Source: a virus. Taken from it: DNA of 64,000 nt. Location: the IMG/VR virus record IMGVR_UViG_3300028581_000013. The stretch is one strand, 5' to 3'. The notes under the pieces are model-generated. The model was not told the origin of the DNA and ran no database searches. It was given only the letters and a program-made list of their open reading frames with translations. Shown piece after piece: positions 24,736 through 48,300 of the stretch. The stretch's first letter is position 1, and each line of letters opens with the position of its first letter. The translations under genes and the position numbers were made by a program.

Positions 24736-25300
24736 AATTTTTAAGTATGATACAGAAGTAGCTTCCAAAGTTGAAGTAAAAAAACAACAATCGAAATATT
24801 TTAAATTGGTAAATGAAAACGATCCAATTTTAAAACAGGTATTACCACAATTTGATTTTAAAAATCCTCCCGTTAATCCAGAAGAATTTGTGGAGTCTTT
24901 AGCCGAAACCTGTAAACTTCATCGTGGTATTGGACTGTCAGCAAATCAATGTGGATTTTCATATCGTGTATTTGTAATGGGTGCCGGAGATGAATATGTG
25001 GCATATTTTAATCCTAAGATAACGGCAAAAACCGAAGAAGAAGTTCACATGATAGAAGGTTGTTTATCTTTTCCTTTTTTAGGTTTAAGGATTACCAGAC
25101 CAAAAGAAATTATGGTTGAATACCAGAATTATCATGGAGAAATAAAACAGGCAAAATTTGATGGCATATCTGCTCGTTGTTTTCAACATGAGCTTGACCA
25201 CATGAATGGTATCGTGTATACTAGTCATACAAAGCCAATGGCTTTACAGTCAGGTATGAATAAAAGAAATAAAATCATGAGAAAGTTGAAACTCAAATAA
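24728..25300 (+). CDS. def: Peptide deformylase
   Basis: GIGLSANQCG, EGCLSF, QHELDH. Confidence 0.95.
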   Translation: MSEIFKYDTEVASKVEVKKQQSKYFKLVNENDPILKQVLPQFDFKNPPVNPEEFVESLAETCKLHRGIGLSANQCGFSYRVFVMGAGDEYVAYFNPKITAKTEEEVHMIEGCLSFPFLGLRITRPKEIMVEYQNYHGEIKQAKFDGISARCFQHELDHMNGIVYTSHTKPMALQSGMNKRNKIMRKLKLK

Positions 25301-26565
25301 TGGCAAGAGTAGAACCCGTAGAAACACAATGGAAAAGGTGGACAGAAAAAAATCCATCGGACCAGATTCGGCATATTGATAAAGAACAGTTAACAAAAAC
25401 TGTTACTCAAGATTTAGAATATGCCTCTCAAATGGATGTTCGTGAATATACTTTATATCAAAAATGGTGTGAAGTAAAAGAAAGATATCCAGGCAAAGCT
25501 AGTGTGAATATGTTTGGTGATCCAGATATTTCTTGGGAAGATGATGCACAAGCAGCTATTATAAACAAAGTAAAAAACAATATTTGGGTTCCTAAAGATG
25601 TGGATGATTTTCAAAACCTAGAACCTCAAATGTATCTGGCTAATACTAATCGTGTTGATGAATGGAATGCTATAAGAACATTTTCTTCTACAATGAAAAA
25701 CAATTCTAATATTGGAAGAAATTTATATTACATTGTTAAAGATAAAAAAACGAATAAGTATCTTGGTGTTATCTGTATCTCATCAGACTTTTTAGATTTA
25801 ACTCCTAGAGATAAAGCAATTGGCTGGTCCAGAGATGTGAAAACATCACAGAGTATGATTAACCACACAGCAATAGGTTCAACAATTGTACCACTACAAC
25901 CTCTTGGATATAATTACATGGGTGGTAAATTACTCGCATTATTATGTTTATCTGACAAAGTTCAAAATGATTGGAAAGAAAGATATGGTGATGTTTTGGT
26001 AGGAGTTACAACCACTTCATTATATGGAAAAACTAAAGCGGGTGGTCTTTCTCAATATGACGGCCTCGAGCATTGGAATTCTATGGGATTCTCCTCTGGC
26101 TCTGTTGCCTTTGAACCAACAAAACAAACCAAACAGTTGATTTTTGATTGGATAAAAGAAAACCATACTCGCAAATATTTTGAATGGTGGGAAGCAAAGA
26201 ATCCACAAGGATTGCCACTCAAACGAGATCACAAAAATCGTTCATTACATTTTGCTTATCCAAAACTTGGTATATCAAAAGACAAAACTAGAACAGAACA
26301 CCAACGTGGTATATATTTTAGTTATCTCTATAATAACACTTGTGAATTTTTACGAAAAGAAATTACAGAAGATAAACTGGTAAAGTCGTTTGATACCAGT
26401 GAAGAAGCGTTAACAAACATCTGGAAAACAAAGTATGCCAAAGGTCGTATTCGGCAACTACAAAAGAAAAACAATGTTTCATATGAAACACTTTTCTATG
26501 ATGATTTGATTTATTTAACTTGGGAAGAAACCAAGGCAAAGTATTTGCCACAAGTTGGCAGATAA
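25300..26565 (+). CDS. DUF4338/DruA-like protein, paralog 1
   Basis: LTPRDKAIGW, IVPLQPLGYNYMGGKLLALLC, TTTSLYG, SQYDG. Confidence 0.65.
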   Translation: MARVEPVETQWKRWTEKNPSDQIRHIDKEQLTKTVTQDLEYASQMDVREYTLYQKWCEVKERYPGKASVNMFGDPDISWEDDAQAAIINKVKNNIWVPKDVDDFQNLEPQMYLANTNRVDEWNAIRTFSSTMKNNSNIGRNLYYIVKDKKTNKYLGVICISSDFLDLTPRDKAIGWSRDVKTSQSMINHTAIGSTIVPLQPLGYNYMGGKLLALLCLSDKVQNDWKERYGDVLVGVTTTSLYGKTKAGGLSQYDGLEHWNSMGFSSGSVAFEPTKQTKQLIFDWIKENHTRKYFEWWEAKNPQGLPLKRDHKNRSLHFAYPKLGISKDKTRTEHQRGIYFSYLYNNTCEFLRKEITEDKLVKSFDTSEEALTNIWKTKYAKGRIRQLQKKNNVSYETLFYDDLIYLTWEETKAKYLPQVGR

Positions 26566-26586
26566 TCAAGTATGCCACAAATATAC

Positions 26587-26616
26587 TTGACACACACACA
26601 TATATAATGTTATGAT
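26587..26616 (+). promoter_or_regulatory. Sigma70-type promoter TTGACA-N18-TATGAT with extended -10 TG
   Basis: Intergenic, upstream of the HTH gene. Confidence 0.7.
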
Positions 26617-26671
26617 GTGAGAACTTGCAATACGCAAGGATTTATTTTTAACTATGATTGGAGTTTATATA

Positions 26672-26941
26672 ATGGCTAAGTTATCAGCTAAAGAGCGCAT
26701 GCTCAACACACTAAAGAAGCAAGACGGTTATAACACTTTTACAACTGCTCAAGCACAACGCCGTTTCGGCATCAGCAATGTTTCTGCTCGTATCGATGAG
26801 CTGCGTCAAGAAGGTCATTGCATCTATACTAACACCCGCACAACCGGTGATGGTCGTAAAGTTAGTTTCTATCGTTTAGGTACACCAACTAAAGCGATGG
26901 TTCAAGCTGCCTTACGTGCTGGGTATTCTTTCGCAGCCTAA
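26672..26941 (+). CDS. Small winged-helix DNA-binding protein
   Basis: FTTAQAQRRFGISNVSARIDELRQEGHCI...YRLG; own promoter and terminator; GGAG SD. Confidence 0.7.
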   Translation: MAKLSAKERMLNTLKKQDGYNTFTTAQAQRRFGISNVSARIDELRQEGHCIYTNTRTTGDGRKVSFYRLGTPTKAMVQAALRAGYSFAA

Positions 26942-26952
26942 TTTAAGGTTAT

Positions 26953-26985
26953 AGGGGAAGTCGTTCATCGGCATCCCCTTTTTTT
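26953..26985 (+). terminator. Intrinsic terminator
   Basis: AGGGGA-A-GTCG...CGGC-A-TCCCCT followed by a T-run. Confidence 0.8.
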
Positions 26986-27000: not shown

Positions 27001-27819
27001 ATGGAAATTTCAATAAAAAAAGAGGACTTACAAAAGAAAAGTCTATTCGTAGCCACACCAATGTATGGTGGCATGAATCATGGACTATACATGAAAGCTT
27101 GTTTAGACTTACAAGGAATGTGTGTTCAATACGGAATTAATATTAAATTTTCATTTCTTTTCAACGAATCATTAATCACTCGTGCCAGAAACTATTTGGT
27201 GGACGAATTCATTCATCGTTCTGATTGCACACATATGTTGTTTATTGATTCCGATATTCATTTTAATCCACAAGATGTGATTGCTTTATTGGCCATGGAC
27301 AATGAAGTTTCTGGTGGTCCTTATCCCAAGAAAGCAATTAAGTGGAAATCTGTAAAGACTGCTATTGTAAAAAATCCTGAAATTGATCCTGCTATTTTAG
27401 AAAAAGTTACTGGTGATTATGTTTTCAATCCAGTCAAAGGTACAGCACAATTTAATGTTACTGAACCATTAGAAGTATTGGAGATTGGTACAGGATTTAT
27501 GATGATTAAACGTGATGTTTTTAAAAAGATGGAAGAAGCATATCCAATGATTCGTTATAAACCAGACCATGTTGGTCAACAACACTTTGATGGCACTCGC
27601 TACATTCATGCTTTCTTTGATACGGTTATTGACACAAAAGATAGTATTGTTGGCGGTGGTTCTGAGCGATATCTAAGTGAAGATTATATGTTTTGCCAAA
27701 TGTGGCGTAAGATTGGTGGTAAAATTCATTTGTGTCCTTGGATGAGAACATCTCATATTGGTACGTATCATTTCCAAGGAGATATGCCAGCTGTGGCCAA
27801 TTTTGTTGGAGAAATGTAA
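27001..27819 (+). CDS. GT-A fold glycosyltransferase-like protein
   Basis: FVATPMYGG, SLITRARN, HMLFIDSDI (DxD), GTGFMMI, LSEDYMFC. Confidence 0.75.
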   Translation: MEISIKKEDLQKKSLFVATPMYGGMNHGLYMKACLDLQGMCVQYGINIKFSFLFNESLITRARNYLVDEFIHRSDCTHMLFIDSDIHFNPQDVIALLAMDNEVSGGPYPKKAIKWKSVKTAIVKNPEIDPAILEKVTGDYVFNPVKGTAQFNVTEPLEVLEIGTGFMMIKRDVFKKMEEAYPMIRYKPDHVGQQHFDGTRYIHAFFDTVIDTKDSIVGGGSERYLSEDYMFCQMWRKIGGKIHLCPWMRTSHIGTYHFQGDMPAVANFVGEM

Positions 27820-28178
27820 TGAGTGATGTGAATGGTCCTTTTGGTTATAAAATTGCAGATGAGGTTAAGGCTTCACAAAATGCAACCACCGGGGGCCGTA
27901 AATTTGATGGTGGTAAATTACAATACGGGTTATTACCGCCAGCAGCTTTAAAAGCAACAGTTGAAATCCTTACGTTTGGTGCAGAAAAGTATGAACCAGA
28001 CAATTGGAAGTATGTACCAGATTCTAAACGTAGGTATTTTGATGCCATGCAACGGCACCTGTGGGCTTGGAAAGAAGGAGAGATTAGTGATCCTGAATCT
28101 GGTAAACATCACTTGGCACACGCAATGTGCTGCTTGATGTTTCTGTATGAACATGATACAATATATTCGAAGCAGTAA
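27819..28178 (+). CDS. dATP/dGTP diphosphohydrolase (DUF5664-like)
   Basis: GRKFDGGK, TFGAEKY..DNW, RH, DPESGKHHLAHAMCC; ATG overlaps the previous stop. Confidence 0.82.
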   Translation: MSDVNGPFGYKIADEVKASQNATTGGRKFDGGKLQYGLLPPAALKATVEILTFGAEKYEPDNWKYVPDSKRRYFDAMQRHLWAWKEGEISDPESGKHHLAHAMCCLMFLYEHDTIYSKQ

Positions 28179-28198
28179 TTTTTATAATGGAGAAAACA

Positions 28199-28870
28199 AT
28201 GAAGTTATCAAATGAAACATTGGCAGTATTAAAGAATTTTTCGGCAATCAATCAAGGCATTCAGTTTAAGAAAGGCACAAAACTTACCACAGTATCCGCT
28301 GGTAAAACTGTTTTGGCACAAGCCACTCTTAAAGATGAATTTCCACAAGACTTTTGTGTATATGATTTGAATCAATTTTTGTCGGTACATTCTTTACATA
28401 AAGATTCTGAATTGAGTTTTGACGATTCAAATGTTATTTTTAAATCTGGTCGTTCTAGTACAAAGTATCGTAAAACGGCAAAAGAAATGATTGTAACTCC
28501 TCCAGAGAAAGAAATCTCTTTGCCTTCTGTTGATGTGTCTTTCACTTTAACAGAAGAAGATTATGCAAACATCATGAAGGTAGCTAGTGTGTTGGGTTCG
28601 CCACACATTGCTGTTGAATCTGATGGAGAGTTCGTTCAATTGGCAGCTTTTGATTCTCTAGACGATTCGGCTCACACCAACTCGATTCAAGTTGGCCAAG
28701 GTGATGGTAAAAAGTATAAGATTGTTTTCAAGACTGAAAATATCAAATTAATTCCTGGAAGTTATTCTGTTGAAATTTCTTTCAAAGGTATTGGCCACTT
28801 TAAAAATACTAAAGATGCCATTGAGTATTGGATTGCTTTTGAAGCAAAAGAAACAAAGATTGGAGATTAA
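28199..28870 (+). CDS. gp45: Sliding clamp
   Basis: MKLSNETLAVLKNFSAINQGI, YDLNQFL, YWIAFE. Confidence 0.95.
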   Translation: MKLSNETLAVLKNFSAINQGIQFKKGTKLTTVSAGKTVLAQATLKDEFPQDFCVYDLNQFLSVHSLHKDSELSFDDSNVIFKSGRSSTKYRKTAKEMIVTPPEKEISLPSVDVSFTLTEEDYANIMKVASVLGSPHIAVESDGEFVQLAAFDSLDDSAHTNSIQVGQGDGKKYKIVFKTENIKLIPGSYSVEISFKGIGHFKNTKDAIEYWIAFEAKETKIGD

Positions 28871-28871
28871 T

Positions 28872-29063
28872 ATGTTGGTTAATTTTACTGATTCCACAAC
28901 AAATGAATCTATTGCTATCAACTTAGCCAATCTAGTTTGTGTCTTTACAGTTAAAGAAGAAGGCGTTGAGAAAACAGTTATCAATATGATTAATGGTAAC
29001 GTTGCTGTAAAAGAAAACTATTTGGAAACTGTTGGTAGAATCAATGCAGAAATGCCTAGGTAA
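28872..29063 (+). CDS. Small hypothetical protein (FlbD-like pattern)
   Basis: ATG 28872 with GGAG; IAINLANLV...TVINM...VKENYLETVGRI. Confidence 0.55.
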   Translation: MLVNFTDSTTNESIAINLANLVCVFTVKEEGVEKTVINMINGNVAVKENYLETVGRINAEMPR

Positions 29064-29119
29064 TTATTTTGAAAGTAGTAAAGAAGTGTTGAGAAGTTAT
29101 TATATTATGGGAGTGTTAA

Positions 29120-30055
29120 ATGGAACATTTACTTTGGGTCGAGAAGTACCGTCCAAAAACAATTGAAGATTGTATTTTACCAGATGCGATCAAGGAAACT
29201 TTTCAGGAGTACGTTAAAAGAAAAGAAATACCAAATCTTCTTTTATCTGGTACGGCAGGTGTCGGAAAAACAACTGTTGCTAAAGCTTTATGCAATGAGG
29301 TTGGTTGTGATTTTATTGTCATCAATGGCTCTGACGAGTCTGGCATTGATGTGCTTCGCAACAAAATTAAGAATTATGCTTCATCAGTTTCTCTCACTGG
29401 CGGCCGAAAAGTCATCATCATTGATGAGGCTGATTATCTTAACCCTAATTCGACTCAACCTGCTTTACGGGGAGCCATTGAAGAATTCTCATCGAATTGC
29501 TCGTTCATCTTCACATGCAATTTCAAAAACCGTATTATCGATCCAATACACTCTCGGTGTTCTGTTATTGATTTTAAAATCAACGGTTCTAAACCAAAAC
29601 TGGCTGCACAATTCTTTAAAAGAGTTGAAGGTATCTTACAACAAGAGAATATCAAATATTCAAAAGATGTTGTCGCATCCATCATCACGAAACACTTTCC
29701 TGACAATCGAAGAATTCTTAACGAACTTCAGCGTTATTCTGTGTCAGGTTCGATTGATAGTGGGATTCTGTCTAATATTGCTGATATACAACTTGATAAT
29801 CTTATTAAGTCGTTAAAAGAAAAAGACTTTGCCTCTGCTCGTAAGTGGGTCACCAACAATCTAGATAATGATCCTGTTAAAGTTTATCGCAAACTTTATG
29901 ATGGTCTATATGATGCTCTTGATGCCAGTTCAGTTCCACAACTTGTTCTTATTCTTGCTAAGTATCAATATCAATCCGCTTTTGTGGCTGACCACGAAAT
30001 CAATATGACTGCTTGTTTAACCGAAATTATGGTAGATTGTGAGTTTAAAAAATGA
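29120..30055 (+). CDS. gp44: Clamp loader large subunit
   Basis: LWVEKYRP, GTAGVGKTT, IIDEAD, SRC. Confidence 0.97.
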   Translation: MEHLLWVEKYRPKTIEDCILPDAIKETFQEYVKRKEIPNLLLSGTAGVGKTTVAKALCNEVGCDFIVINGSDESGIDVLRNKIKNYASSVSLTGGRKVIIIDEADYLNPNSTQPALRGAIEEFSSNCSFIFTCNFKNRIIDPIHSRCSVIDFKINGSKPKLAAQFFKRVEGILQQENIKYSKDVVASIITKHFPDNRRILNELQRYSVSGSIDSGILSNIADIQLDNLIKSLKEKDFASARKWVTNNLDNDPVKVYRKLYDGLYDALDASSVPQLVLILAKYQYQSAFVADHEINMTACLTEIMVDCEFKK

Positions 30056-30660
30056 CTTATTATGAAAAACATTTAACTTTAAATTGGGTTCATGTTAATC
30101 AAATTTATAGATATTCGAATAACATTACAGCAGCAGTGTATGCTTGGGCTTGGTTGAATAAAGAACCTAACAAAAAAACTTGGCCTTGTGATATAAAAGA
30201 TACATTTTATATTGGTATGAGTGGTGGATTGGAAGATGATTTTATAGCCGATAGAAAGGAAAAACACAGAGTTCCAGCACTAACAACTAGGTTTCACCTT
30301 AGAATGAAACAACATATAGGTTTTTTTCGTAATCCAAATGCAAAATTTGGAAAACAAGCTTTAAAATATAATTTATATCATGAATTGTTTAATGAAGAAA
30401 CGACACAAAATAAAGAATTGTATTGTGCAATTATGATTCCTAAAGATAATGTTTCTAGAGTTGGTTTGAGAAATAGATTGGAATTAATTGAATCGGAATT
30501 GAAAGAAGTATATTGTGAGAATTTTCATGAGATTCCTGTTTTATGTTTAGCAGAAAAAGATAATGTTACTGATTCGATGAAAAATTATAATTCAATTTCT
30601 CAACAAAAAATTAGAGAACATGAACAATCTAGTTTAATAAGGTTTTTTAAAAATGACTAA
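30052..30660 (+). CDS. Putative GIY-YIG-like endonuclease
   Basis: AVYAW...FYIGMS...RMKQH...IESEL pattern. Confidence 0.45.
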   Translation: MTYYEKHLTLNWVHVNQIYRYSNNITAAVYAWAWLNKEPNKKTWPCDIKDTFYIGMSGGLEDDFIADRKEKHRVPALTTRFHLRMKQHIGFFRNPNAKFGKQALKYNLYHELFNEETTQNKELYCAIMIPKDNVSRVGLRNRLELIESELKEVYCENFHEIPVLCLAEKDNVTDSMKNYNSISQQKIREHEQSSLIRFFKND

Positions 30661-31105
30661 AGACGAAATGATGAATGAGTTGGGTCTAGCCGGTGAAAAA
30701 ATCATCATTAATTTGTTGAGTGAAGAAGGTCGTAAGATTCAAAGTTCAATTAACAAATATGATTCAGAAAAAGATTTATTGGCTGATAATAAAAAAGTAG
30801 AAGTTAAAACACAAGTACCTTTTATTATGCAAAATGCTTTTACTTTTAAACCAAATCAACTCCGTAAATGTCGTTCTGTGGATGAATTGTATTTTGTTTC
30901 TGTACCAGCTAGCCATCATACCGATAAGTGGGCTGGCTGGATTTTTAAAGCAGACCCTAAAAGTTTTAAAACTAGAAACTATAAAACAAAAGATGGCCGT
31001 GATATGTTATTGGTTGACCGTGAACAAGATTCGTTGACACCAATCAAAAAAATGTCCATGGAAGAAATAAAGGAGTTGCAAAAATATACGGTATCGGGGT
31101 ACTAA
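30653..31105 (+). CDS. Putative PD-(D/E)xK nuclease
   Basis: LGLAGEK...KDLL...VEVKT. Confidence 0.55.
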   Translation: MTKDEMMNELGLAGEKIIINLLSEEGRKIQSSINKYDSEKDLLADNKKVEVKTQVPFIMQNAFTFKPNQLRKCRSVDELYFVSVPASHHTDKWAGWIFKADPKSFKTRNYKTKDGRDMLLVDREQDSLTPIKKMSMEEIKELQKYTVSGY

Positions 31106-31106
31106 G

Positions 31107-31499
31107 ATGCCAGATTTATTTAAAGAAATTCTTCCGTCTATACTAGAGAAGAAAAAGAGTGTGTTTTTGGATGAATATGATTATAAAGACTATAATCCTT
31201 ATATCATCAATCGAGCCTTGTCGTACCACATGGATTGCATACTCTATGTCAATGAACTAAACAAGAATCCTAACCTTGAAAAGGACTTACAATATTCATA
31301 TCTTCTAAATACCATAAGACCAATGAAACGGAAATTTCAACCGTGGCAGAAATCAGAGGTCGATAAAGATATGGAATGTGTCAAACAGTATTTTGGTTAC
31401 TCCAACGAGAAAGCCAAAGAAGCTTTGCGTATTCTTAATGATGAACAAATCGCTGAAATAAAAGCTAAAACAAATAAAGGCGGAGTGAACAAGTCATGA
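31107..31499 (+). CDS. gp62: Clamp loader small subunit
   Basis: YNPYIINRALS, YFGYSNEKAKEALRIL. Confidence 0.93.
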   Translation: MPDLFKEILPSILEKKKSVFLDEYDYKDYNPYIINRALSYHMDCILYVNELNKNPNLEKDLQYSYLLNTIRPMKRKFQPWQKSEVDKDMECVKQYFGYSNEKAKEALRILNDEQIAEIKAKTNKGGVNKS

Positions 31500-31903
31500 T
31501 TGCAATCATAGATTTAGTTGAAGTTACATTAGGTGAGAAAGATGATTTCCTCAAGGTCCGTGAAACGTTAACACGAATCGGTGTAGCTTCCAAAAAAGAC
31601 AAAATTCTTTACCAATCTTGTCATATTCTACATAAACAAAGCAGGTATTACATAGTACATTTCAAAGAACTATTTGCTTTGGATGGTAAACCAACTGACA
31701 TTACCGAAAACGATCTATCTCGTAGAAACGCAATTGCCAAACTACTAGAAGATTGGGGTCTGGTAAAAATATTGGATAAAAGTAAAGTGGAAAACCCACC
31801 TCCAATATTCTTATCTCAAATTAAGATCATATCACATAAAGAAAAAGACGATTGGGATTTGGTACCCAAGTATAATATTGGTAAAAAACCAGGAGCCTAT
31901 TGA
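31496..31903 (+). CDS. regA: Translational repressor RegA
   Basis: DDFLKVRETLTRIGVAS, LYQSCHILHKQ, YYIVHFKELF. Confidence 0.97.
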   Translation: MIAIIDLVEVTLGEKDDFLKVRETLTRIGVASKKDKILYQSCHILHKQSRYYIVHFKELFALDGKPTDITENDLSRRNAIAKLLEDWGLVKILDKSKVENPPPIFLSQIKIISHKEKDDWDLVPKYNIGKKPGAY

Positions 31904-31930: not shown

Positions 31931-31935
31931 TGGAT

Positions 31936-31998
31936 GTAGGTGCCTCAGGGGCCTATAATTTTGATTAACTCGCTTAAACTAAGGAGCACATAAACATG
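31936..31998 (+). promoter_or_regulatory. ROSE-like RNA thermometer in the hsp20 5' UTR
   Basis: 5' hairpin at 31936-31956, then CTC-G-CTTA / TAAGGAG stem sequestering the SD with a bulged G (UCGCU motif). Confidence 0.7.
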
Positions 31999-32457
31999 AC
32001 TACAAGTCTATTACCAAGTCTATTTGACTTTCACAAAACGCTGGATCCATTCACAGTTGGTTACGATAAGTTCTTCAAAGACATTGAAGAAGTTACCAAA
32101 AATGTAACCAAGAATATACCATCGTATCCCCCATACAATATCAAACAAGTAAGCAAGAACAAGTATGTCATTGAAATGGCAGTTGCTGGTTTTGCCAAGT
32201 CTGATATTGAAGTAACTCTTGAAGGTAATAAATTGGTCATCAAAGGTGCTGCAAAAGAAGATGAACTTAAAGAAGAAGAAAATTTCCTCTTTAAAGGAAT
32301 CGCTAACCGTAACTTTACACGTTCATTTACATTGGCTGACAAGATTGAAATCGGTCAAGCTGAAATGATGAATGGTATGTTGCGTGTATGGTTAGAGAAT
32401 CTTGTGCAGGCTCAAGATACCATTAAAAAGATTGCCATTAAAGAAAAGAGTGTATAA
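31996..32457 (+). CDS. Small heat-shock protein (Hsp20, IbpA-like)
   Basis: SYPPYNI, IEMAVAGF, KGIANRNFTRSFTLA, NGMLRV. Confidence 0.95.
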   Translation: MTTSLLPSLFDFHKTLDPFTVGYDKFFKDIEEVTKNVTKNIPSYPPYNIKQVSKNKYVIEMAVAGFAKSDIEVTLEGNKLVIKGAAKEDELKEEENFLFKGIANRNFTRSFTLADKIEIGQAEMMNGMLRVWLENLVQAQDTIKKIAIKEKSV

Positions 32458-32563: not shown

Positions 32564-32573
32564 GGTACATATT

Positions 32574-34701: not shown

Positions 34702-34710
34702 TGTTATAGT
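34682..34710 (+). promoter_or_regulatory. Sigma70 promoter TTGACA-N17-TATAGT with extended -10 TG, driving the tRNA-Gly-like RNA
   Basis: Ends 9 nt before the RNA 5' end. Confidence 0.8.
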
Positions 34711-34719: not shown

Positions 34720-34789
34720 GCGGTCGGGGTATAGAACCAGAGTAGGTGTCCAACTTACTCATCTAGTGCGAATCTAGACCACCGCTCCA
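34720..34789 (+). tRNA. Non-canonical 70-nt tRNA-Gly(TCC)-like RNA
   Basis: GCGGT.GG/CCACCGC acceptor, U73, CCA; minimal D arm; 7-bp anticodon stem with TG-TCC-AA loop; T arm TCTAG-TGCGAAT-CTAGA. Confidence 0.75.
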
Positions 34790-40665: not shown

Positions 40666-43196
40666 GTAATTTTTATACTAATGTGCAGAGTATCGGTGGC
40701 AACATACTCTATCGTGGAATACAAAACGGCAAGAAAATAAAGACAAAGGTTGAGTATGCTCCATCTTTGTTTTTGCCATCCAAAAAAATCACCAACTTCA
40801 CAAGTCTTGAGGGTGATTACCTAGACGAGAAAAAGTTTCCATCAATCAAAACAGCCAGAGATTATATCAAACAATTTGAAGGTGTTTCTAGTGCATCAAA
40901 GATTTATGGCCAAACTCGATTTGAATATGCCTTTATTGCCGACCAACATCAAGGTATGGTTGATTATGATTATGAAAAAGTATCAATCGCTGTAATCGAT
41001 ATTGAAGTCGGTTCTGAGAATGGCTTTCCTGATCCATACGAAGCAAACGAACCCATCACAGCAATCTGTTTAAAATTTCTCAATGGCAAACCAATCGTAT
41101 TTGGCTGTGGTGAATATCAAGTTGAAGAAGGTGAAATCTATATTCGTTGTAAAGATGAATACAATCTTTGTAAGAAATTTCTTGAGTTTTGGAAAGACAA
41201 ATATCCAGATATCGTAACTGGCTGGAACACCAAGTTCTTTGATATACCATATCTCATCAATCGTTTTCGCAAGATTCTAGGTGACGATGAAGTCAAGAAA
41301 CTATCACCATGGAATTTCATTACAGAACGCAAAGCATATGTAAACAATCGACAGTTGATTGATTACACACTTGTTGGACTATCTTCACTTGATTACATTG
41401 AACTATACAAATGGTACGCACCGGGTGGTAAGTCACAAGAGTCATATCGTTTGGATAATATCGCACAAGTAGAACTTGGTGAAGGCAAGATTGCATATGA
41501 TGAATATGATAACCTTCATTCTTTGTATCGATTAAACTTTCAAAAGTTTATTGAGTACAACATTAAAGACGTTGAACTCATTATCAAACTTGAAGATAAA
41601 TTAAAACTGCTTGAACTGGCAGTAACTCTTGCATACGATACCAAATCAAACTTTGAAGATGTGTTTGCTCAAACTCGTATGTGGGACGCTCTAACATATT
41701 CTTATCTCCGTGATAAAGATATTATTGTTCCACCACGAGTAGTCAAAGATAAAGATGCAGCATTTGAAGGTGCCTATGTTAAAGTACCGCAAGTTGGTCT
41801 CCATAATTGGGTTGCTTCATTTGATTTGAACTCTCTATATCCACATTTGATGATGCAGTATAATATCTCACCCGAAACACTCATTGAACCAGAGAATTAT
41901 ACAGATGAAATGCGTGAGATTCTTTCACAAGGCGTTTCTGTTGATGGACTTTTGAAAAAAGGAATTGATACTTCAAAATTAAAAGGTGCAACACTAACAC
42001 CTAATGGCCAATTCTTTCGCACTGATTTTCAAGGTTTCTTGCCTAAGATGATGGAAGAAATGTATACAGACAGAAGTAAGTTTAAGAAGTTGATGTTACA
42101 AGCAAAACAGGAATATGAAAATGAAACAGATAGCTCGAAGAAATATGAAATTGAGAAACGAATCGCCAAATATAACAACATTCAGTTGGCAAAAAAAGTA
42201 TCTCTCAACTCTGCTTATGGTGCTTTGGGTAGTCAGTATTTCCGTTTCTACGATTTGCGGATGGCTCTTGGCGTCACTACTGCTGGCCAATTAAGTATTC
42301 GTTGGATCGAAAATAAAATTAACGATTACATGAATAAATTATTAAAGAGTGAGAAAGATTATGTTATTGCATCGGATACAGATTCGATTTATCTCAACCT
42401 TGGCCCATTGGTTGATAGTATTGTTAAAACAAAAACAGAAATTACTAAAGTTATCTCCATCATGGATCGTGTTTGTGAAGATAAAATTCAACCTTTTATT
42501 GATAAAAGTTATCAGGAACTTGCAGAATATGTGTGTGCATTTTCCCAAAAAATGGAAATGAAACGAGAAGGCCTTTCTAACAAAGGTATCTGGACTGCCA
42601 AGAAACGATATATTTTGAATGTCTATAATAACGAAGGTGTACAATACAAAGAACCACAGATGAAAGTCATGGGTCTAGAGATGATTAAATCTTCCACACC
42701 TTCCGCTATTCGTGAGAAAATGAAAGAAGCAATTCAATTAATGGTGAGTGGCACAGAGAATGATATCCACAAATTCATTGAAGATTTTAGAAAAGAATTT
42801 AAAAAACTACCTGTCGAAGAAATTTCATTTCCTCGTGGACTCAATGGTCTAAATACTTATTCTGATTCATTGTCTTTATATAAAAAAGGAACACCAATTC
42901 ATGTTAAAGGTGCTATTCTTTATAATCATAATTTAAATTTAAAAAATCTAACCAAAAAATATCCACTCATTCAAGAGGGTGAAAAAGTTAAATTCACCTA
43001 TCTAAAGATGCCAAATCCATTTAAAGATACTGTTATTTCTTATCCATCTCGTTTACCAAAAGAGTTTGAATTGCAACAGTATATTGATTATGATATGCAG
43101 TTTGAAAAAGCATTCCTAGAACCAATCAAAGTAATTCTTGATTGCATGGGTTGGCGAGTAGAAAAAACAAGTTCAATAGAGGATTTCTTCTCATGA
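40662..43196 (+). CDS. gp43: Family B DNA polymerase
   Basis: DIEV (Exo I), SFDLNSLYP, KKVSLNSAYG, SDTDS; probable TTG start at 40662. Confidence 0.98.
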   Translation: MSNFYTNVQSIGGNILYRGIQNGKKIKTKVEYAPSLFLPSKKITNFTSLEGDYLDEKKFPSIKTARDYIKQFEGVSSASKIYGQTRFEYAFIADQHQGMVDYDYEKVSIAVIDIEVGSENGFPDPYEANEPITAICLKFLNGKPIVFGCGEYQVEEGEIYIRCKDEYNLCKKFLEFWKDKYPDIVTGWNTKFFDIPYLINRFRKILGDDEVKKLSPWNFITERKAYVNNRQLIDYTLVGLSSLDYIELYKWYAPGGKSQESYRLDNIAQVELGEGKIAYDEYDNLHSLYRLNFQKFIEYNIKDVELIIKLEDKLKLLELAVTLAYDTKSNFEDVFAQTRMWDALTYSYLRDKDIIVPPRVVKDKDAAFEGAYVKVPQVGLHNWVASFDLNSLYPHLMMQYNISPETLIEPENYTDEMREILSQGVSVDGLLKKGIDTSKLKGATLTPNGQFFRTDFQGFLPKMMEEMYTDRSKFKKLMLQAKQEYENETDSSKKYEIEKRIAKYNNIQLAKKVSLNSAYGALGSQYFRFYDLRMALGVTTAGQLSIRWIENKINDYMNKLLKSEKDYVIASDTDSIYLNLGPLVDSIVKTKTEITKVISIMDRVCEDKIQPFIDKSYQELAEYVCAFSQKMEMKREGLSNKGIWTAKKRYILNVYNNEGVQYKEPQMKVMGLEMIKSSTPSAIREKMKEAIQLMVSGTENDIHKFIEDFRKEFKKLPVEEISFPRGLNGLNTYSDSLSLYKKGTPIHVKGAILYNHNLNLKNLTKKYPLIQEGEKVKFTYLKMPNPFKDTVISYPSRLPKEFELQQYIDYDMQFEKAFLEPIKVILDCMGWRVEKTSSIEDFFS

Positions 43197-44203
43197 TTAT
43201 TCTAACATTATTATCAGCATTATTGTTATCTGGTATTGCAGCTTACTATTCGATTATTGGATTGGCTGCAATTTTTACCGGAGCATTTTGGCCAATCGTT
43301 TTTATGGGTTCGGTTCTTGAGATGAGTAAATTAGTTACTGCATCATGGTTATATCGTAATTGGAAAACCTGCCCACTTTTATTAAAATCTTATTTGACAT
43401 CCGCTGTTGTTATATTAATGATAATTACCAGTATGGGTATTTTTGGATTCTTATCGAAAGCTCACATAGATTCCACACTAGAAGCTGGTGCAAACTCGGT
43501 TGAAATACGAACACTCAATCAACAAGAAAAGATTGCGAAAGAACGTTTAGATTATTTACTGAAACGTGCTGGTAATCCAGAAACGGCATCAGCCAATGTT
43601 GATAAACAAATTCAACAAACACAAAAAGAATTGACAGATATTAACAAAAGAAAATTGCCACTTCTTAAAGAGGAAAATAAGTTAATTGCCGAAGTTGGTC
43701 CTATTAAGTATATTGGTGATATGGTATATGGAACTGAAGATAACAATGCCATTGACAAAGCAGTTCGTTTGGTAATATTGTTAATAATGGTTGTATTTGA
43801 CCCCTTAGCTGTGTTATTATTGATAGCAGCAAATATGTCATTACAACAAAGAAATGGTATAACTGATAAAAAAGAAGAAATCATTACTGTTGTACCAGAT
43901 GTTCCGGTATTTACTGAAAAGAAACCGGACGAAGAAATAGAGAATGATAGAGTTGAAATACCTAAAAACAATATTACTTCAATTGACGAAAATGAACAAA
44001 AAGAAATTGTAATTGATGCGGCTTCAGGAGAAACTATACCTCCATTAACGGTGCATCAATCACCAGGTGTTTACACGGAATTTCATGAAGCGGAACAACC
44101 AGTTAAAAAATTAGAACCTAAGTATGATTATGAAGAAGAATTTGCTTTTAAAGAAAAAGAAAAAAAAGCAAAACAAGTTAAATTGGATGGTGGTGACTTT
44201 TAA
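43193..44203 (+). CDS. Multi-TM membrane protein with coiled coil and acidic tail
   Basis: Three N-terminal TMs, EVGPIKYI, VFDPLAVLLLIAAN. Confidence 0.75.
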   Translation: MIILTLLSALLLSGIAAYYSIIGLAAIFTGAFWPIVFMGSVLEMSKLVTASWLYRNWKTCPLLLKSYLTSAVVILMIITSMGIFGFLSKAHIDSTLEAGANSVEIRTLNQQEKIAKERLDYLLKRAGNPETASANVDKQIQQTQKELTDINKRKLPLLKEENKLIAEVGPIKYIGDMVYGTEDNNAIDKAVRLVILLIMVVFDPLAVLLLIAANMSLQQRNGITDKKEEIITVVPDVPVFTEKKPDEEIENDRVEIPKNNITSIDENEQKEIVIDAASGETIPPLTVHQSPGVYTEFHEAEQPVKKLEPKYDYEEEFAFKEKEKKAKQVKLDGGDF

Positions 44204-44212
44204 AGGAATGTT

Positions 44213-45295
44213 ATGAGTATATTAGATAAAATTAAAAAAAATAGTAGTATTAAAGAATCAGCAATTCTTTCTAAATCGAAATTCTTTACACAAAAGGATA
44301 TGATTCCGACATCTGTGCCAATTATTAATGTGGCGCTTTCTGGTCGTTTAGATGGAGGCCTAACACCAGGTCTTACAATGTGGGCCGGCCCATCTAAACA
44401 TTTTAAAACTGCTTTTAGTTTACTAATGGCAAAAAGTTATTTGGACAAATATGATGATGCAGCGTTATTATTCTATGATTCTGAGTTTGGTACTCCTCAG
44501 TCTTATTTTGATAGCTTTGGTATTGATACCAACAGAGTTCTACATACACCTCTTACTGATATTGAACAATTAAAATTTGATATCATGCAACAGTTAACCA
44601 ATCTCGAAAGAGGTGATAGGTTGATTATTGTTATCGATTCAATTGGTAATTTGGCTTCAAAGAAAGAAGTTGAAGATGCTCTAGAAGGTAAATCAGTTGC
44701 CGATATGTCCCGTGCCAAACAAGTTAAAAGTTTATTTCGCATGGTGACACCGCATCTCACAATGAAAGATGTTCCAATGATTGTGGTAAATCATACATAT
44801 AAAGAGATTGGTATGTTCCCTAAAGATATCGTTGGTGGTGGAACAGGTTCATATTATTCAGCTGACAACATTTTTATTATTGGTCGCCAGCAAGAAAAAG
44901 AAGGCACAGAGGTTGTTGGTTACAACTTCATAATTAACGTGGAGAAATCACGCTATGTTAAAGAAAAATCTAAAATTCCTGTTACTGTTTCTTTTGATGG
45001 GGGTGTTAGCCGGTGGTCAGGCTTACTTGATTTGGCACTTGATTCAGGCCTTGTCGTTAAGCCTTCTAACGGGTGGTACAGTAGAGTTGATATTTCTACC
45101 GGTGAAATAGAAGCAAAGAAATATAGAATAAAAGAAACAGACACCAAAGATTTTTGGATGCCTATTATCACCAGTAAAAAGTTTCAAGATTATGTAACGG
45201 ACAAATATCAAATTGCAGCTGGTGAAATTATGCAAGGCGGTGTTGATAATTTATTTGATGAGATTGTTACCATGAATGGGACTGAGAATGAGTAA
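44213..45295 (+). CDS. uvsX: RecA-like recombinase UvsX
   Basis: AGPSKHFKT, FYDSEFG, IDSIGNLASKKE. Confidence 0.96.
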   Translation: MSILDKIKKNSSIKESAILSKSKFFTQKDMIPTSVPIINVALSGRLDGGLTPGLTMWAGPSKHFKTAFSLLMAKSYLDKYDDAALLFYDSEFGTPQSYFDSFGIDTNRVLHTPLTDIEQLKFDIMQQLTNLERGDRLIIVIDSIGNLASKKEVEDALEGKSVADMSRAKQVKSLFRMVTPHLTMKDVPMIVVNHTYKEIGMFPKDIVGGGTGSYYSADNIFIIGRQQEKEGTEVVGYNFIINVEKSRYVKEKSKIPVTVSFDGGVSRWSGLLDLALDSGLVVKPSNGWYSRVDISTGEIEAKKYRIKETDTKDFWMPIITSKKFQDYVTDKYQIAAGEIMQGGVDNLFDEIVTMNGTENE

Positions 45296-45530
45296 TGAAG
45301 ATGCTAAATTAAAACATTCCAAGCGTATTCAAAAAACTCAAAATCAAATTAAAAAACAAACTAAGATTGCCAAATCACATGGTATGCCGGTGGATGAACC
45401 ACACAAATTCGCCAAACATCATGCGATGGACTGTGGTAATCCTGATTGTGTAATGTGTGGTAACCCCAGAAAAGTGTGGAGAGAAAAAACCATACAAGAA
45501 AAAAGATTTGACGAGGTGAAAGATGATTGA
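45288..45530 (+). CDS. Small basic Cys/His protein
   Basis: KHHAMDCGNPDCVMCGNPRK. Confidence 0.65.
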   Translation: MSNEDAKLKHSKRIQKTQNQIKKQTKIAKSHGMPVDEPHKFAKHHAMDCGNPDCVMCGNPRKVWREKTIQEKRFDEVKDD

Positions 45531-45846
45531 AGGAGTAGATTACTGTTTCATTTACCCAAAAAATGATGAAACTGCCGTACACATTAAATTTTTAGATGGT
45601 CCATATAAAAATACCACATTTAAATATGGTAAGGTAAAATTTAAAGAAGAAGATCAACAGGTGTATTTACTTTTTGCTTATGATGTGATAGAATCCACAG
45701 TAGACAAGCCAAGAAAGTTGGAAAAAGATACTGATTTTAAAAATTACATTGGTAATTTATTGGTAGAAATTATGGGTAGTAACATTGAACAGGAAATAAT
45801 TGATGAAGCTGGAACAAACGATATTGAAGAACCTCGTTTACAATGA
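45523..45846 (+). CDS. Hypothetical protein
   Basis: GAGG SD; lies between uvsX and gp41. Confidence 0.65.
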   Translation: MIEGVDYCFIYPKNDETAVHIKFLDGPYKNTTFKYGKVKFKEEDQQVYLLFAYDVIESTVDKPRKLEKDTDFKNYIGNLLVEIMGSNIEQEIIDEAGTNDIEEPRLQ

Positions 45847-47194
45847 GGAATATTTACGAAAAGTTTTACCATTTTTAAAGACAGAATATTTTAGTGATAA
45901 TGTAGAGAGAACATTATTTAATGAAATTACATCATTCACGGAGACTTACAATAACACGGCAACGATTGAAGCACTTAGTATTGCCGTCAAAGAAAAGAGA
46001 AATCTTACAGCTGATGAAGTTCAGAGATGCGAGGACTATCTTCTCGAAATTGAAAAGATTAAGTCTACAGAAACCGAGGTTCAATGGCTTGTTGATAAGA
46101 CCGAAAAATTCTGTCAAGAGAAGGCCATATATAACGCAGTATTGGGGTCTATTTCGATTCTCGATGGCAAAGATAAAAATCACGACAAAGGCCAGATTCC
46201 CAAGATATTATCGGACGCTTTAGCAGTAAGTTTTGATAACTCCGTTGGCCATGACTACTTACAGGACTCAGATGCTCGATATGAATTCTATCACAGAAAA
46301 GAGGAACGAATCCCATTCGACCTCGATTACTTTAACAAGATCACAAAAGGTGGTTTACCAGCTAAGACGCTTAACATTGCTTTGGCGGGGACTGGTGTTG
46401 GTAAATCTCTTTTTATGTGTCATGTGGCTGCTTCGTGCATGGTTCAGGGTAAAAATGTCCTTTACATCACTTTGGAAATGAGTGAAGAAAAGATTGCAGA
46501 ACGAATTGATGCCAATCTATTGAATGTTACTATTGATGATTTGATTGAGTTACCAAAAGATATGTATGATAAAAAAGTTAATCGTGTCCGTGAAAAGACT
46601 ACAGGCAAACTTATTATCAAAGAATATCCAACCGCTTCAGCATCAACTATTCATTTTAGGACACTATTAAATGAACTTAATCTCAAGAGGTCTTTTGTAC
46701 CTGACATTATATTTGTTGACTATCTCAATATTTGTTGTTCTGCTCGTATTAAGGCTGGCGCAAATATTAATTCCTACACCTACGTTAAAGCAATTGCAGA
46801 AGAATTACGTGGCCTTGCTGTTGAGTATAATGTTCCTATTGTATCTGCTACACAAACTACCCGCTCAGGATTTACTTCCAGTGATCCGGGACTTGAGGAT
46901 ACGAGTGAGTCGTTCGGACTTCCCGCCACCGCAGACTTGATGTTCGCTTTGATTTCTTCTGAAGAACTAGAAGAACTTGGTCAGATTATGGTTAAACAAT
47001 TGAAGAATCGATATAATGATCCAACATTCCACAAACGATTTACTCTTGGTGTTGATAGATCCAAAATGAAACTATATGATGTTGAACAGGCTGCACAAAT
47101 GGGTATCGCAGATGCTGGCCACGATAAGCCTTTGAACACATTTGGTACCAGAGAAGATAGACCAAAGAAATCATTTAGTGGATTTAAAGTATGA
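45803..47194 (+). CDS. gp41: Replicative DnaB-like helicase
   Basis: AGTGVGKS, YITLEM, VDYLNI, SATQTTRSG, KQLKNRY. Confidence 0.97.
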   Translation: MKLEQTILKNLVYNEEYLRKVLPFLKTEYFSDNVERTLFNEITSFTETYNNTATIEALSIAVKEKRNLTADEVQRCEDYLLEIEKIKSTETEVQWLVDKTEKFCQEKAIYNAVLGSISILDGKDKNHDKGQIPKILSDALAVSFDNSVGHDYLQDSDARYEFYHRKEERIPFDLDYFNKITKGGLPAKTLNIALAGTGVGKSLFMCHVAASCMVQGKNVLYITLEMSEEKIAERIDANLLNVTIDDLIELPKDMYDKKVNRVREKTTGKLIIKEYPTASASTIHFRTLLNELNLKRSFVPDIIFVDYLNICCSARIKAGANINSYTYVKAIAEELRGLAVEYNVPIVSATQTTRSGFTSSDPGLEDTSESFGLPATADLMFALISSEELEELGQIMVKQLKNRYNDPTFHKRFTLGVDRSKMKLYDVEQAAQMGIADAGHDKPLNTFGTREDRPKKSFSGFKV

Positions 47195-48300
47195 TGATCA
47201 ATAGGGATCAGGCACTTCATTGTGCTGGTGTATTTAAAGATTACTTTAGTAACATTGGAAGTACCGAAGAATACATGCGTGATGAGAAACTGAAGAATGT
47301 GGCTGATATGCCATCTTCTTTATTTCCAATTGAAGATGATTTATTCTCCGATTTCACAATGCACCCAAAAGATATGGATATTGAAGTGTGTGAAATACCA
47401 AACGATGTTTGGGAACCTTTACTTGCCATTACCAGTTCACACATCAATAAAGCACCAGTTGGTAAGAATATTCAATTGGCAGTCAAAGAAAGAAACTCAG
47501 GAAAGATTCTAGGATTCATTCGTTTGGGTTCACCAGTAATCTATATGAAACCTCGTAATGACTACCTAGGACAAGTTTGGATTCAAAATGAAGATACTGC
47601 CAAGCGGTTCAATACGGCTTGTGTTATGGGTTTCGTAATTGTACCATCTCAACCATTTGGTTTTAATTATCTAGGCGGTAAACTTTTATCTGCCATTTGT
47701 GCCAGTCATACCGTAAGAGAAATCTGTAATAAAAAATACGATATGAATATCTGCTTGTTTGAAACTACCAGTTTATATGGAAGTACCAAATCGGTTTCAC
47801 AATATGATGGCATGAAACCTTACATTCGTTTTAAAGGCTTAACAGAATCAGATATTGTGCCAATGATGCACGGCCAAAGATATACTGATTTGAAAAAATA
47901 CGTGGAGGATATTACTGGTGATTTATTGGGTGGAGATACTTCAACAACGAGTAGAAAACTCAGAACATTCACTAAGATTATTGCTCTCACCAAAGCTGCT
48001 TTAAAAGGAACACCTGAAGGAGATGCTTTCTCTTTAACGATTGACAATGCCAAAAAGTTGACAGAAAAGAAACGATATTATATTTCTGATTATGGATTTA
48101 AAAATACTGTTGATTACATGAATTGTAAGACCGACAAACTTTTACCTGGTGAAAATTACAAGAAACATGAACTATCAAATGTAATCGAATGGTGGCGGAG
48201 TAAAGCTATAAATAGATATGAAACCCTTAAAGCTGAGGGTAGATTACGAACAGAACTTGAAGTATGGACTTCAGGTAAAGACATTCAAATTATTAGGTAA
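47191..48300 (+). CDS. DUF4338/DruA-like protein, paralog 2
   Basis: GFIRLGSP...PRN, IVPSQPFGFNYLGGKLLSAIC, ETTSLYG, SQYDG. Confidence 0.65.
   Translation: MMINRDQALHCAGVFKDYFSNIGSTEEYMRDEKLKNVADMPSSLFPIEDDLFSDFTMHPKDMDIEVCEIPNDVWEPLLAITSSHINKAPVGKNIQLAVKERNSGKILGFIRLGSPVIYMKPRNDYLGQVWIQNEDTAKRFNTACVMGFVIVPSQPFGFNYLGGKLLSAICASHTVREICNKKYDMNICLFETTSLYGSTKSVSQYDGMKPYIRFKGLTESDIVPMMHGQRYTDLKKYVEDITGDLLGGDTSTTSRKLRTFTKIIALTKAALKGTPEGDAFSLTIDNAKKLTEKKRYYISDYGFKNTVDYMNCKTDKLLPGENYKKHELSNVIEWWRSKAINRYETLKAEGRLRTELEVWTSGKDIQIIR
48207..48214 (+). promoter_or_regulatory. Late promoter TATAAATA
   Basis: Exact consensus about 90 nt upstream of ATG 48304. Confidence 0.6.

Follow-up and report, generated by a model that had tools for sequence, protein, structure and literature searches.

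Diverged DruA-family paralogs with a predicted GNAT fold in the replisome operons of T4-like phages, and their possible action on phage DNA

Why would a marine T4-like phage keep two diverged relatives of a bacterial defence protein among its replication genes, and could their products act on its DNA? The question arises from a 64,000-nt window (the whole stretch analysed) of the 136-kb virus record IMGVR_UViG_3300028581_000013, for which an earlier note, made from the sequence, had proposed a tRNA-dependent DNA-modification system. On the plus strand, the window encodes a type-A protein of 421 aa (P0001; 25300-26565) and a type-B protein of 369 aa (P0002; 47191-48300), both of which were assigned to the DruA/DUF4338 family by PF14236 and to the GNAT fold by predicted structure. 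The motifs that had been reported as common to the two genes, TTSLYG, SQYDG and a GGKLL-type element, are indeed present in the translations, which read IVPLQPLGYNYMGGKLL, TTSLYG and SQYDG for P0001 and IVPSQPFGFNYLGGKLL, TTSLYG and SQYDG for P0002, and BLASTP established the two as true, diverged paralogs (35% identity over a 142 aa core, E 1e-25). PF14236 (DruA, equivalent to DUF4338) matched P0001 with 71.5 bits (E 8.6e-20) and P0002 with 34.2 bits (E 1.9e-8), both above the gathering threshold of 27 bits, while the PADLOC DruA1 model gave E values of 1.5e-17 and 1.8e-6, respectively, and phrog_19197 was matched by both alike.

The family to which these proteins belong is large (>6,500 clusters at 90% identity) and abundant in marine metagenomes, and members of it also occur in giant viruses and, standing alone, in mobile-element contexts. 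All of 75 diverse DruA-like homologs matched PF14236; among them, K210, Y253, G156 and W375 are invariant, and R170, Q200, P201, G203, G208, G209, T238-S240, R336, G337 and R383 are near-invariant, a pattern that was repeated in a second comparison (75 to 117 homologs overall). Because these residues are conserved across the 75 homologs, we argue that the DruA-like proteins are probably active as enzymes. The same conservation of putative active-site residues speaks against the notion that the phage proteins are non-catalytic decoys or disruptors of host complexes resembling Druantia type I, as do the occurrence of the family in giant viruses and stand-alone mobile elements and the lack of DruB-E partners in the phage. 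Such mimicry, which we consider highly unlikely, would fit the DruA family membership, the frequent carriage of defence-component homologs by phages, and a Phold preprint in which structure-based annotation already reported DruA-like proteins of Synechococcus phages and placed them among defence look-alikes (10.1101/2025.08.05.668817).

DruA of Druantia type I shares its Pfam and PADLOC family and its GNAT domain with the phage proteins, whereas the phage genes are duplicated, lie in replisome operons and come without DruB-E. A complete Druantia type I system (DruA plus DruB, DruC, DruD and the large DruE helicase) was considered and rejected, as only DruA was found: a search of the 136-kb record returned exactly two DruA matches (P0001 and P0002), none of five other genes (four paralog neighbours and the ORF after gp43) matched PADLOC, and no ORF in the region exceeds gp43, at 855 aa. 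DUF4338 has been described as a GNAT domain, and DndF, a DNA-restriction protein, carries it as a fusion (PMC10853773). In addition, Druantia type I gives rise to an m6A-like signal in host DNA in the absence of a recognised methylase domain, a signal that was not attributed to DruA (10.1101/2024.04.14.589459), and another preprint describes methyltransferase modules within type I systems (10.64898/2026.05.12.722862).

The genomic setting ties both genes to DNA replication, in agreement with the placement given in the earlier note, after the gp46 operon and coupled to gp41. P0001 follows gp46/SbcC-like (22478-24193), heme oxygenase (24190-24735) and peptide deformylase (24728-25300) genes, which together span 22478-25300 on the plus strand, and overlaps the def stop codon by 1 nt. 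Further along the same strand, a small winged-helix protein (26654-26941; Pfam HTH_39, E 9e-8) lies between the type-A gene and a putative glycosyltransferase gene, and a replisome block at 28187-31903 carries the gp45 clamp (28187-28870), gp44 (29120-30055), gp62 (31107-31499) and RegA (31496-31903). A second plus-strand block (40629-47194) comprises the gp43 DNA polymerase (40629-43196), UvsX (44213-45295) and the gp41 helicase (45800-47194), whose stop codon is overlapped by the start of P0002 by 4 nt. DruA-like genes lie in replisome operons in all phage lineages examined, in slots after gp46/def, between gp44 and gp62, after gp43 or after gp41, and this linkage is kept across pelagimyophages and at least six cyanophage genera. 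Since the genes sit inside replisome operons, their products are probably synthesised along with the replication machinery.

The best structural match of the predicted structures was a DNA-modifying enzyme. In AF2 models of pLDDT 95.1 (P0001) and 89.4 (P0002), both paralogs adopt a GNAT alpha/beta core, and all top matches in three independent structure searches were GNATs, which bears out the fold that had been suspected from the motifs. Mu Mom gave the highest Z for both paralogs, with alignments of 186 and 180 residues that were by far the longest among the top-ranked matches (~145 for SpeG and AAC(6')). The first BFVD match bearing a family name was Mom of phage FSL SP-031, and a type-B homolog in one deposited cyanophage genome is already annotated as 'methylcarbamoylase mom'. 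The P0001 model comprises an N-terminal helical domain (1-100), the GNAT core (~105-365) and a C-terminal helix, and the modelled helical insertion between beta6 and beta7 (275-322 in P0001, 228-288 in P0002) would match the HTH-like insertion of Mom in topological position. Beyond what aligns to other GNATs, ~40 further residues align to Mom (8BV8), as judged by alignment length. By order in the sequence, Mom Y159 may have its counterpart in Y253, and Mom R196-G197 in R336-G337. Published work describes Mom as a GNAT enzyme for the aminoacylation of adenine in dsDNA from Gly-tRNAGly, in which the insertion and residues R111, S124, D149 and R151 are essential (PMC13219725); the tRNA dependence of Mom put forward in the earlier note is therefore correct (PMC13219725; bioRxiv 10.1101/2023.03.24.534169).

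The likeness to Mu Mom (PF25680; PDB 8BV8), a Gly-tRNAGly-dependent adenine N6 carbamoylmethylase, does not extend to sequence or profile homology. The Mom HMM PF25680 had no match in the phage record, in a search that likewise found none in the control genomes, nor in any of the 75 DruA-like homologs even at E 1, and hhalign of a DruA-like query against a 111-sequence Mom alignment returned a probability of 0.1; Mom-family membership by sequence was thus rejected. Compared with Mom, the DruA-like proteins are larger by 130-180 aa, with added N- and C-terminal parts, and their genes would be expressed alongside those for replication, whereas mom is under Com control and expressed late. They also keep a glycine-rich loop that is absent from Mom, Q200-P-x-G203-x-N205 followed by G208-G209-K210, which is near-invariant, occupies the beta4-alpha3 junction, and resembles the CoA pyrophosphate-binding motif A (Q/R-x-x-G-x-G/A), although it is longer than the canonical motif, with N where the latter has G/A. 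Because of this resemblance, we see an acyl-CoA donor as no less likely than a tRNA donor. Acetyl-CoA GNATs typically have an invariant tyrosine in alpha4, as the DruA-like proteins do, and SpeG, AAC(6'), phosphinothricin and N-terminal acetyltransferases scored within 0.3-1 Z unit of Mom. These features would suit ordinary acyl-CoA-dependent N-acyltransferases whose target is a replisome or host protein or a small molecule (polyamine, nucleotide) rather than DNA. We regard this as a somewhat unlikely account, given that the additional residues align to Mom only, that the beta6-beta7 insertion may have its counterpart in Mom, that the genes lie strictly within replisome operons, and that bacterial relatives are found in settings of DNA-directed defence (Druantia I and the DndF fusion; PMC10853773). 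Canonical acyl-CoA GNATs (SpeG, AAC(6')-Ib, phosphinothricin acetyltransferase, RimI), of which only ~145 residues align, differ from the DruA-like proteins in having neither the insertion nor the terminal domains nor a replisome linkage.

We tentatively favour, with confidence somewhat below even, a reading in which the DruA-like proteins are replication-coupled GNAT acyltransferases that modify nucleic acid, most probably phage DNA, with an acyl or aminoacyl group serving as a protective mark. The diverged DUF4338/DruA paralogs, with a large beta6-beta7 helical insertion and extra N- and C-terminal helical parts added to the GNAT core, would be produced alongside the replication machinery, would place the group on nucleic acid, most probably on the replicating phage DNA, and the mark would shield that DNA against host nucleases. 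This would parallel Mom in architecture, and would parallel the role that we infer for DruA in Druantia type I. While we infer catalytic activity, a DNA target and a protective role from these features, a protein or small-molecule target is fully compatible with them. Among the uncharacterised genes of marine T4-like phages infecting SAR11 and Synechococcus hosts, those encoding DruA-like proteins belong to the more abundant. If the proteins modify DNA, they would represent an unrecognised hypermodification in ocean phage genomes, with a bearing on host defence, sequencing and metagenome assembly, and would open a first biochemical way into DruA, the signature protein of Druantia type I, which is so far uncharacterised.

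Two genes upstream of the clamp had been taken as further parts of a modification system, the second as a sign of substituted purines. On the plus strand, 27001-27819 encodes a plausible GT-A enzyme of Anp1/GT62-like type (phrog_1574, E 3e-64; DSD motif), for which the Anp1/GT62 match is weak (E 1.2e-3, below the cut-off) and look-alike clusters are named 'putative Anp1 / nucleotide-diphospho-sugar transferase'. It is followed by a small DUF5664/dATP-dGTP diphosphohydrolase-like protein (27819-28178, plus strand; PF18909, N-terminal, E 5.2e-34; phrog_801, E 6.6e-44) that does abut gp45, as had been pointed out. This neighbourhood, however, is not conserved in the relatives that were inspected (Mosig, HTVC008M and cyanophages), and the purine interpretation was not borne out: neither PurZ (PF00709) nor TGT/DpdA (PF01702) was found in the record, which is an estimated 82% complete, while the positive controls were recovered in 14 of 14 genomes. 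For the part of the genome that the record covers, a 2-aminoadenine (Z-genome) or 7-deazaguanine system was rejected on these grounds.

The atypical tRNA-Gly invoked by the earlier note turned out to be a real tRNA-like RNA. The gene is 70 nt long (34720-34789, plus strand; anticodon UCC), has a cloverleaf-like fold (z-score -3.2), and is preceded by a putative sigma-70-type promoter (34682-34710, plus strand; TTGACA-17-TATAGT with an extended -10 TG, 11 of 12 matches) that ends 9 nt before it and is conserved in relatives. ARAGORN does not call it, the ARAGORN/Rfam tRNAs being Met, Thr and Met, and RF00005 did not report it at E <= 10 in a 301-nt search; its homolog in HTVC008M is called as tRNA-Gly(ACC) and passes RF00005 with 49.5 bits. 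Across 21 distinct 70-nt variants, 94.8% of the cells in 20 pairs were paired and 5 pairs showed compensatory changes, compared to none in six slid controls, which supports the cloverleaf. The identity set of bacterial GlyRS consists of G1-C72, C2-G71, G3-C70, U73, C35 and C36. This set is complete and invariant in all 21 variants. The RNA of the window has G1-C, C2-G, G3-C, C35-C36, U as discriminator and a CCA end that is encoded; it departs from the norm in its anticodon loop UGUCCAA (G33, no U33), which is invariant, in the T loop UGCGAAU, in a D stem of 3 bp that lacks GG, and in a C6.C61 mismatch that is constant. Judged from these comparisons, the locus is a conserved tRNA-like RNA that covaries in its stems, bears glycine features and has a strong promoter to itself. 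As a canonical tRNA-Gly(UCC) usually follows 1-7 nt downstream in relatives, the atypical RNA appears dispensable for decoding.

A link between this RNA and the DruA-like proteins is hypothetical and confounded by kinship. The RNA accompanies the paralog pair throughout the pelagimyophage-like clade, including HTVC008M, and in 5 of 5 long contigs, which were chosen only for carrying type B, an atypical tRNA-Gly-like gene is placed between type A and type B. Because all co-occurring genomes form one clade, kinship suffices to explain this pattern, and the expected co-occurrence did not hold outside it: neither Mosig, which has type A only, nor five of the six cyanophages that have type B only gave a match, and S-SSM7 has only a canonical tRNA-Gly. 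A 161-kb relative (95% complete) carries a tRNA-Gly of the atypical lineage and no DruA gene. It is thus improbable, in our view, that the DruA-like GNATs move glycine from a dedicated non-ribosomal tRNA-Gly to DNA bases by Mom-type chemistry, a scheme further weakened by the 8 kb and 12 kb that separate the paralog genes from the tRNA and by the motif-A-like loop, which is typical of CoA binders. It would draw on the use of Gly-tRNAGly by Mom (PMC13219725), the retained glycine features without U33, the usual T-loop sequence or the D-loop GG, the invariant anticodon loop beside covarying stems, the promoter, and the spare canonical tRNA. Equally improbable is a wider proposal, by which DUF4338/DruA is a second widespread Mom-like GNAT lineage that aminoacylates DNA from charged tRNA, with the dedicated tRNA-Gly of the abundant pelagimyophage clade, having lost ribosome and EF-Tu features and lying next to a canonical copy, as its feeder; DruA would then write the m6A-like self-mark of Druantia type I, and the phage copies would counterfeit it. 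Staphylococcus Fem-type aminoacyl-tRNA transferases are served by dedicated non-proteinogenic tRNAGly. FemX and tRNA are discussed in PMC2175331; Fem proteins differ from the phage DruA-like proteins in having two GNAT domains and peptidoglycan-precursor substrates. GNAT toxins that target Gly-tRNAGly (discussed in PMC13219725) suggest that the phage proteins might instead be TacT/AtaT-type enzymes that acylate aminoacyl-tRNA and remodel translation, with the atypical RNA, given its place in a tRNA cluster near a small basic ORF or S21, as substrate, decoy or regulator. This we hold to be very improbable, as the proteins are two to three times the size of GNAT toxins and carry a predicted Mom-like insertion, the genes lie among replisome and not translation genes, and no antitoxin-like partner was seen.

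An atypical tRNA-Gly paired with a canonical one would be a rare viral case of a tRNA kept for a non-decoding task. These questions are directly testable in cultured phages, namely HTVC008M with both paralogs and the tRNA, Mosig with type A alone, and several Synechococcus phages with type B alone. A small Lys-rich ORF of 57 aa (34810-34983, plus strand), which has no Pfam match, comes after the atypical tRNA both here and in relatives; within its tRNA cluster, the RNA adjoins this small basic ORF here and the gene for ribosomal protein S21 in HTVC008M.

We found that the two DUF4338-like proteins of this stretch, described in the earlier note as paralogs with shared motifs, both belong to the DruA family and both sit within the replication module of a T4-like marine myophage. 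P0001 (type A; 25300-26565, + strand, 421 aa) and P0002 (type B; 47191-48300, + strand, 369 aa) carry the quoted motifs, align over 142 residues with 35% identity (E 1e-25), score above the gathering cut-off for DruA/DUF4338 (Pfam PF14236), match phrog_19197 and the PADLOC DruA1 model, and are the only DruA matches in the 136-kb parent IMG/VR record, which has a completeness estimate of 82%. The module includes genes for gp46/SbcC-like, heme oxygenase, peptide deformylase, gp45, gp44, gp62, RegA, gp43, UvsX, and gp41; P0001 overlaps the deformylase stop, and P0002 overlaps that of gp41 by 4 nt. A megablast search against cultured phages returned no near-identical match for the region. Among cultured phages, both proteins have their closest relatives in two Pelagibacter myophages, Mosig EXVC030M and HTVC008M (58% and 53% identity for P0001, respectively, and 45% for P0002); for P0002, Synechococcus myophages come next at 36-49%. 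Type A always follows gp46 and deformylase-type genes in Mosig and HTVC008M, while type B follows gp43 in HTVC008M and gp41 in the window, and occurs in 25 Synechococcus phage records, where it lies between gp44 and gp62 (6/6 loci inspected). Given these variable positions, the constant feature is the embedding in a replisome operon and no particular neighbor. Between gp46 and the type-A gene, the window has inserted genes for heme oxygenase and peptide deformylase (24190-25300, + strand); at the same place, Mosig encodes a deformylase and 2OG-Fe(II) oxygenases.

An exhaustive phmmer search yielded 911 representative homologs of P0001, of which 75 were aligned (alignment A1). Members of the DruA-like family are highly abundant in marine metagenomes, occur in giant viruses, and are found in bacteria as stand-alone genes in mobile-element contexts; of two distant homologs whose neighborhoods we inspected, one lay in a mobile-element context of the Mrr/resolvase type, whereas the second came from short contigs. 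The only domain fusions among long homologs were homing-endonuclease-type inserts and DUF3102. One 1009-aa homolog (P0257) carries LAGLIDADG, NUMOD3, and HTH_7 segments downstream of its DruA domain, suggesting an intein or a homing-endonuclease fusion.

The proposed GNAT fold and its likeness to Mom, the DNA-modifying enzyme of phage Mu, were borne out by predicted structures and structure searches. Sequence searches of PDB chains with P0001 and P0002 gave no match, and a profile search with A1 gave only a chance match to YjgA (E 1.8). The structure predicted from A1 (pLDDT 95.1) produced only weak Foldseek matches in the PDB, nearly all of them GNAT-fold proteins; among predicted viral structures, the true homologs were unnamed phage and giant-virus proteins, and the first family-named match was Mom of Salmonella phage FSL SP-031. 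The models of both P0001 and P0002 contain a helical insertion between beta6 and beta7; the essential HTH-like insertion of Mom (residues ~175-209), modeled by its authors as a DNA-binding element, is located in the matching C-terminal portion of the Mom GNAT domain (PMC13219725). At the level of sequence, neither HMM nor profile comparisons placed P0001 and P0002 in the Mom family. The Mom HMM (PF25680) matched nothing in the record, a result that is weak alone since 0 of 14 control genomes matched either, and it matched 0 of the 75 homologs even at E <= 1; hhalign of A1 against an alignment of 111 Mom sequences gave a probability of 0.1. Against a single Mom sequence, hhalign aligned no more than 13 columns, a local match with QRG(V/I)Y in common (P0001 residues 335-339, Mom residues 195-199), the sole local resemblance and one at sequence level only, whose R-G is conserved in both families.

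The statement in the earlier note that Mom uses Gly-tRNAGly proved correct: with Gly-tRNAGly as donor, the enzyme adds glycine to the N6 position of adenine in dsDNA, after which the adduct isomerizes to carbamoylmethyl (PMC13219725; preprint 10.1101/2023.03.24.534169). DUF4338 has already been termed a GNAT domain and is fused to DndF in some bacteria (PMC10853773), DruA-like proteins have been reported by structure-based annotation in six Synechococcus phages including S-PRM1 (10.1101/2025.08.05.668817), and the type-B homolog in the deposited S-SCSM2R genome is annotated 'methylcarbamoylase mom'. We found no paper on a function of DruA or on a link between DruA and Mom. According to one preprint (10.1101/2024.04.14.589459), Druantia type I, whose signature protein is DruA, yields an m6A-type signal at a host DNA motif without having a recognized methylase domain; according to another (10.64898/2026.05.12.722862), methyltransferase modules are part of type I systems. 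That DruA might be linked to this signal is something we only infer.

Our preferred, tentative reading is that P0001 and P0002 are GNAT acyltransferases coupled to replication, which probably place a mark on phage DNA. In DruA-like proteins, the beta4-alpha3 junction carries a near-invariant Q-P-x-G-x-N...G-G-K-L-L loop that resembles motif A, which binds the CoA pyrophosphate, whereas Mom has H-D-x-M-P-R-N-S-E-S in place of this glycine-rich loop. As the motif-A-like loop is present in DruA-like proteins and not in Mom, it favors an acyl-CoA donor over a tRNA donor, though not decisively. It would fit an ordinary acyl-CoA enzyme with a target other than DNA, which we consider somewhat less likely than the preferred reading, and its retention argues against the full tRNA-dependent model, in which the DruA-like GNATs take glycine from the atypical tRNA-Gly and add it to DNA bases, and which appears improbable. 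The hypothesis of DNA marking can be tested cheaply on phages already in culture.

The atypical tRNA-Gly itself is genuine, namely a 70-nt cloverleaf with covarying stems at 34720-34789 (+ strand). ARAGORN and Rfam missed it, calling only tRNA-Met, tRNA-Thr, and tRNA-Met over the window, and Rfam, run separately on 301 nt with E <= 10, reported no tRNA at the site. Nevertheless, the site folds like a cloverleaf (z -3.2) and is preceded, 9 nt before the gene, by a TTGACA-17-TATAGT promoter with an extended -10. Pattern scans of IMG/VR recovered 67 copies in 23 variants; over 21 distinct 70-nt variants, 94.8% of cloverleaf cells were paired, with compensatory changes at five pairs compared to 0 in all six slid controls. 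Invariant are G1-C, C2-G, G3-C, the discriminator U, the encoded CCA, and the anticodon loop UGUCCAA (anticodon UCC, with G at position 33), and equally constant are the T loop UGC(G/A)AAU, a D region lacking GG, and a permanent 6:61 mismatch. A covariance model (R1) found a homolog in HTVC008M that ARAGORN and Rfam accept as a tRNA-Gly with the unusual anticodon ACC. A second, ARAGORN-invisible subclass of 67-70 nt (L125:10718-10787, minus strand; L169-L173) has a non-canonical T loop and AUACCCU or a similar sequence as its anticodon loop. In 5/5 long contigs picked solely by type B, such RNAs, of 67-69 nt, are located between the genes of types A and B; contig L125 carries both subclasses. 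In many relatives, a canonical tRNA-Gly(UCC) follows 1-7 nt after the atypical gene (L107:6438-6586; L125:10188-10338, minus strand; L169-L172), a partner that the window lacks. The tandem arrangement and the strong purifying selection on a translation-atypical body jointly suggest from sequence a role other than ordinary decoding; the RNA resembles the non-proteinogenic tRNAGly of staphylococci. In both the window and L125, the atypical tRNA is followed by a 57-aa Lys-rich ORF (34810-34983, + strand, in the window) with the motif NPMLTKxGKxRLGPLN and no Pfam match. The gene after the HTVC008M tRNA-Gly(ACC) encodes ribosomal protein S21; Pfam and BLASTP showed no similarity of the 57-aa ORF to S21, which ruled out that identity.

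Co-occurrence of this tRNA with the DruA-like pair held within the pair-bearing clade and failed outside it. Within the clade, the RNA always accompanied the pair, the cases being HTVC008M, 5/5 contigs picked by type B, and 9 of 10 contigs picked by the tRNA itself; as these genomes are all kin and syntenic, the pattern is not independent evidence. Outside it, the atypical tRNA had no match in Mosig (type A only) or in S-SCSM2R, S-CAM9, S-SM2, S-T4, and S-SRM01 (type B only), and Synechococcus phage S-SSM7 has a canonical tRNA-Gly only. A 161-kb relative (95% complete) has a tRNA-Gly of the atypical lineage without a DruA gene. Hence, the enzymes do not need a special phage-encoded tRNA, and if a tRNA is the donor at all, a host tRNA could serve, by analogy with Mu; the idea of a dedicated donor is attractive but unproven. 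In S-SSM7, the Rfam model RF01745 (manA RNA motif) scores 123.6 bits at L164:1301-1501, directly upstream of the canonical tRNA-Gly(UCC) and ~3 kb downstream of the type-B gene.

The remaining proposed components did not form a conserved system with the DruA-like genes. The DUF5664 protein (27819-28178) is a clear PF18909 match immediately before the sliding-clamp gene gp45, and a GT-A enzyme at 27001-27819 is plausible, given its DSD motif, a weak match to Anp1, and look-alike clusters that bear the Anp1 name. In the window, type A is followed by the wHTH, GT, and DUF5664 genes, which are missing from this position in Mosig, HTVC008M, and cyanophages. By BLASTP, the DUF5664 protein resembled neither the MazG-domain protein that Mosig encodes after type A nor the DUF3310 protein encoded before gp45 in S-SCSM2R, and we therefore rejected a conserved DruA, GT, and DUF5664 module. 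Neither PurZ nor TGT/DpdA genes were found in the record, so that the DUF5664 protein is no evidence here for substituted purines. The original interpretation was half upheld, in its GNAT fold, Mom likeness, Mom/Gly-tRNA precedent, and genuine atypical tRNA-Gly, while Mom-family membership by sequence and the GT/DUF5664 system fell away and the tRNA link was reduced to within-clade co-occurrence.

Sizeable ORFs of 420, 353, 202, and 150 aa in the replication module (48304-49566, 43142-44203, and 30052-31105, + strand) had no PHROG or Pfam match, and the 420- and 353-aa ORFs no PADLOC match. A weak ROSE_3 thermometer-like match (31934-32001, + strand; 28.8 bits, against a gathering score of 43) lies upstream of ORF 31996-32457; related phages have an Hsp20-type heat-shock gene at this post-regA position.
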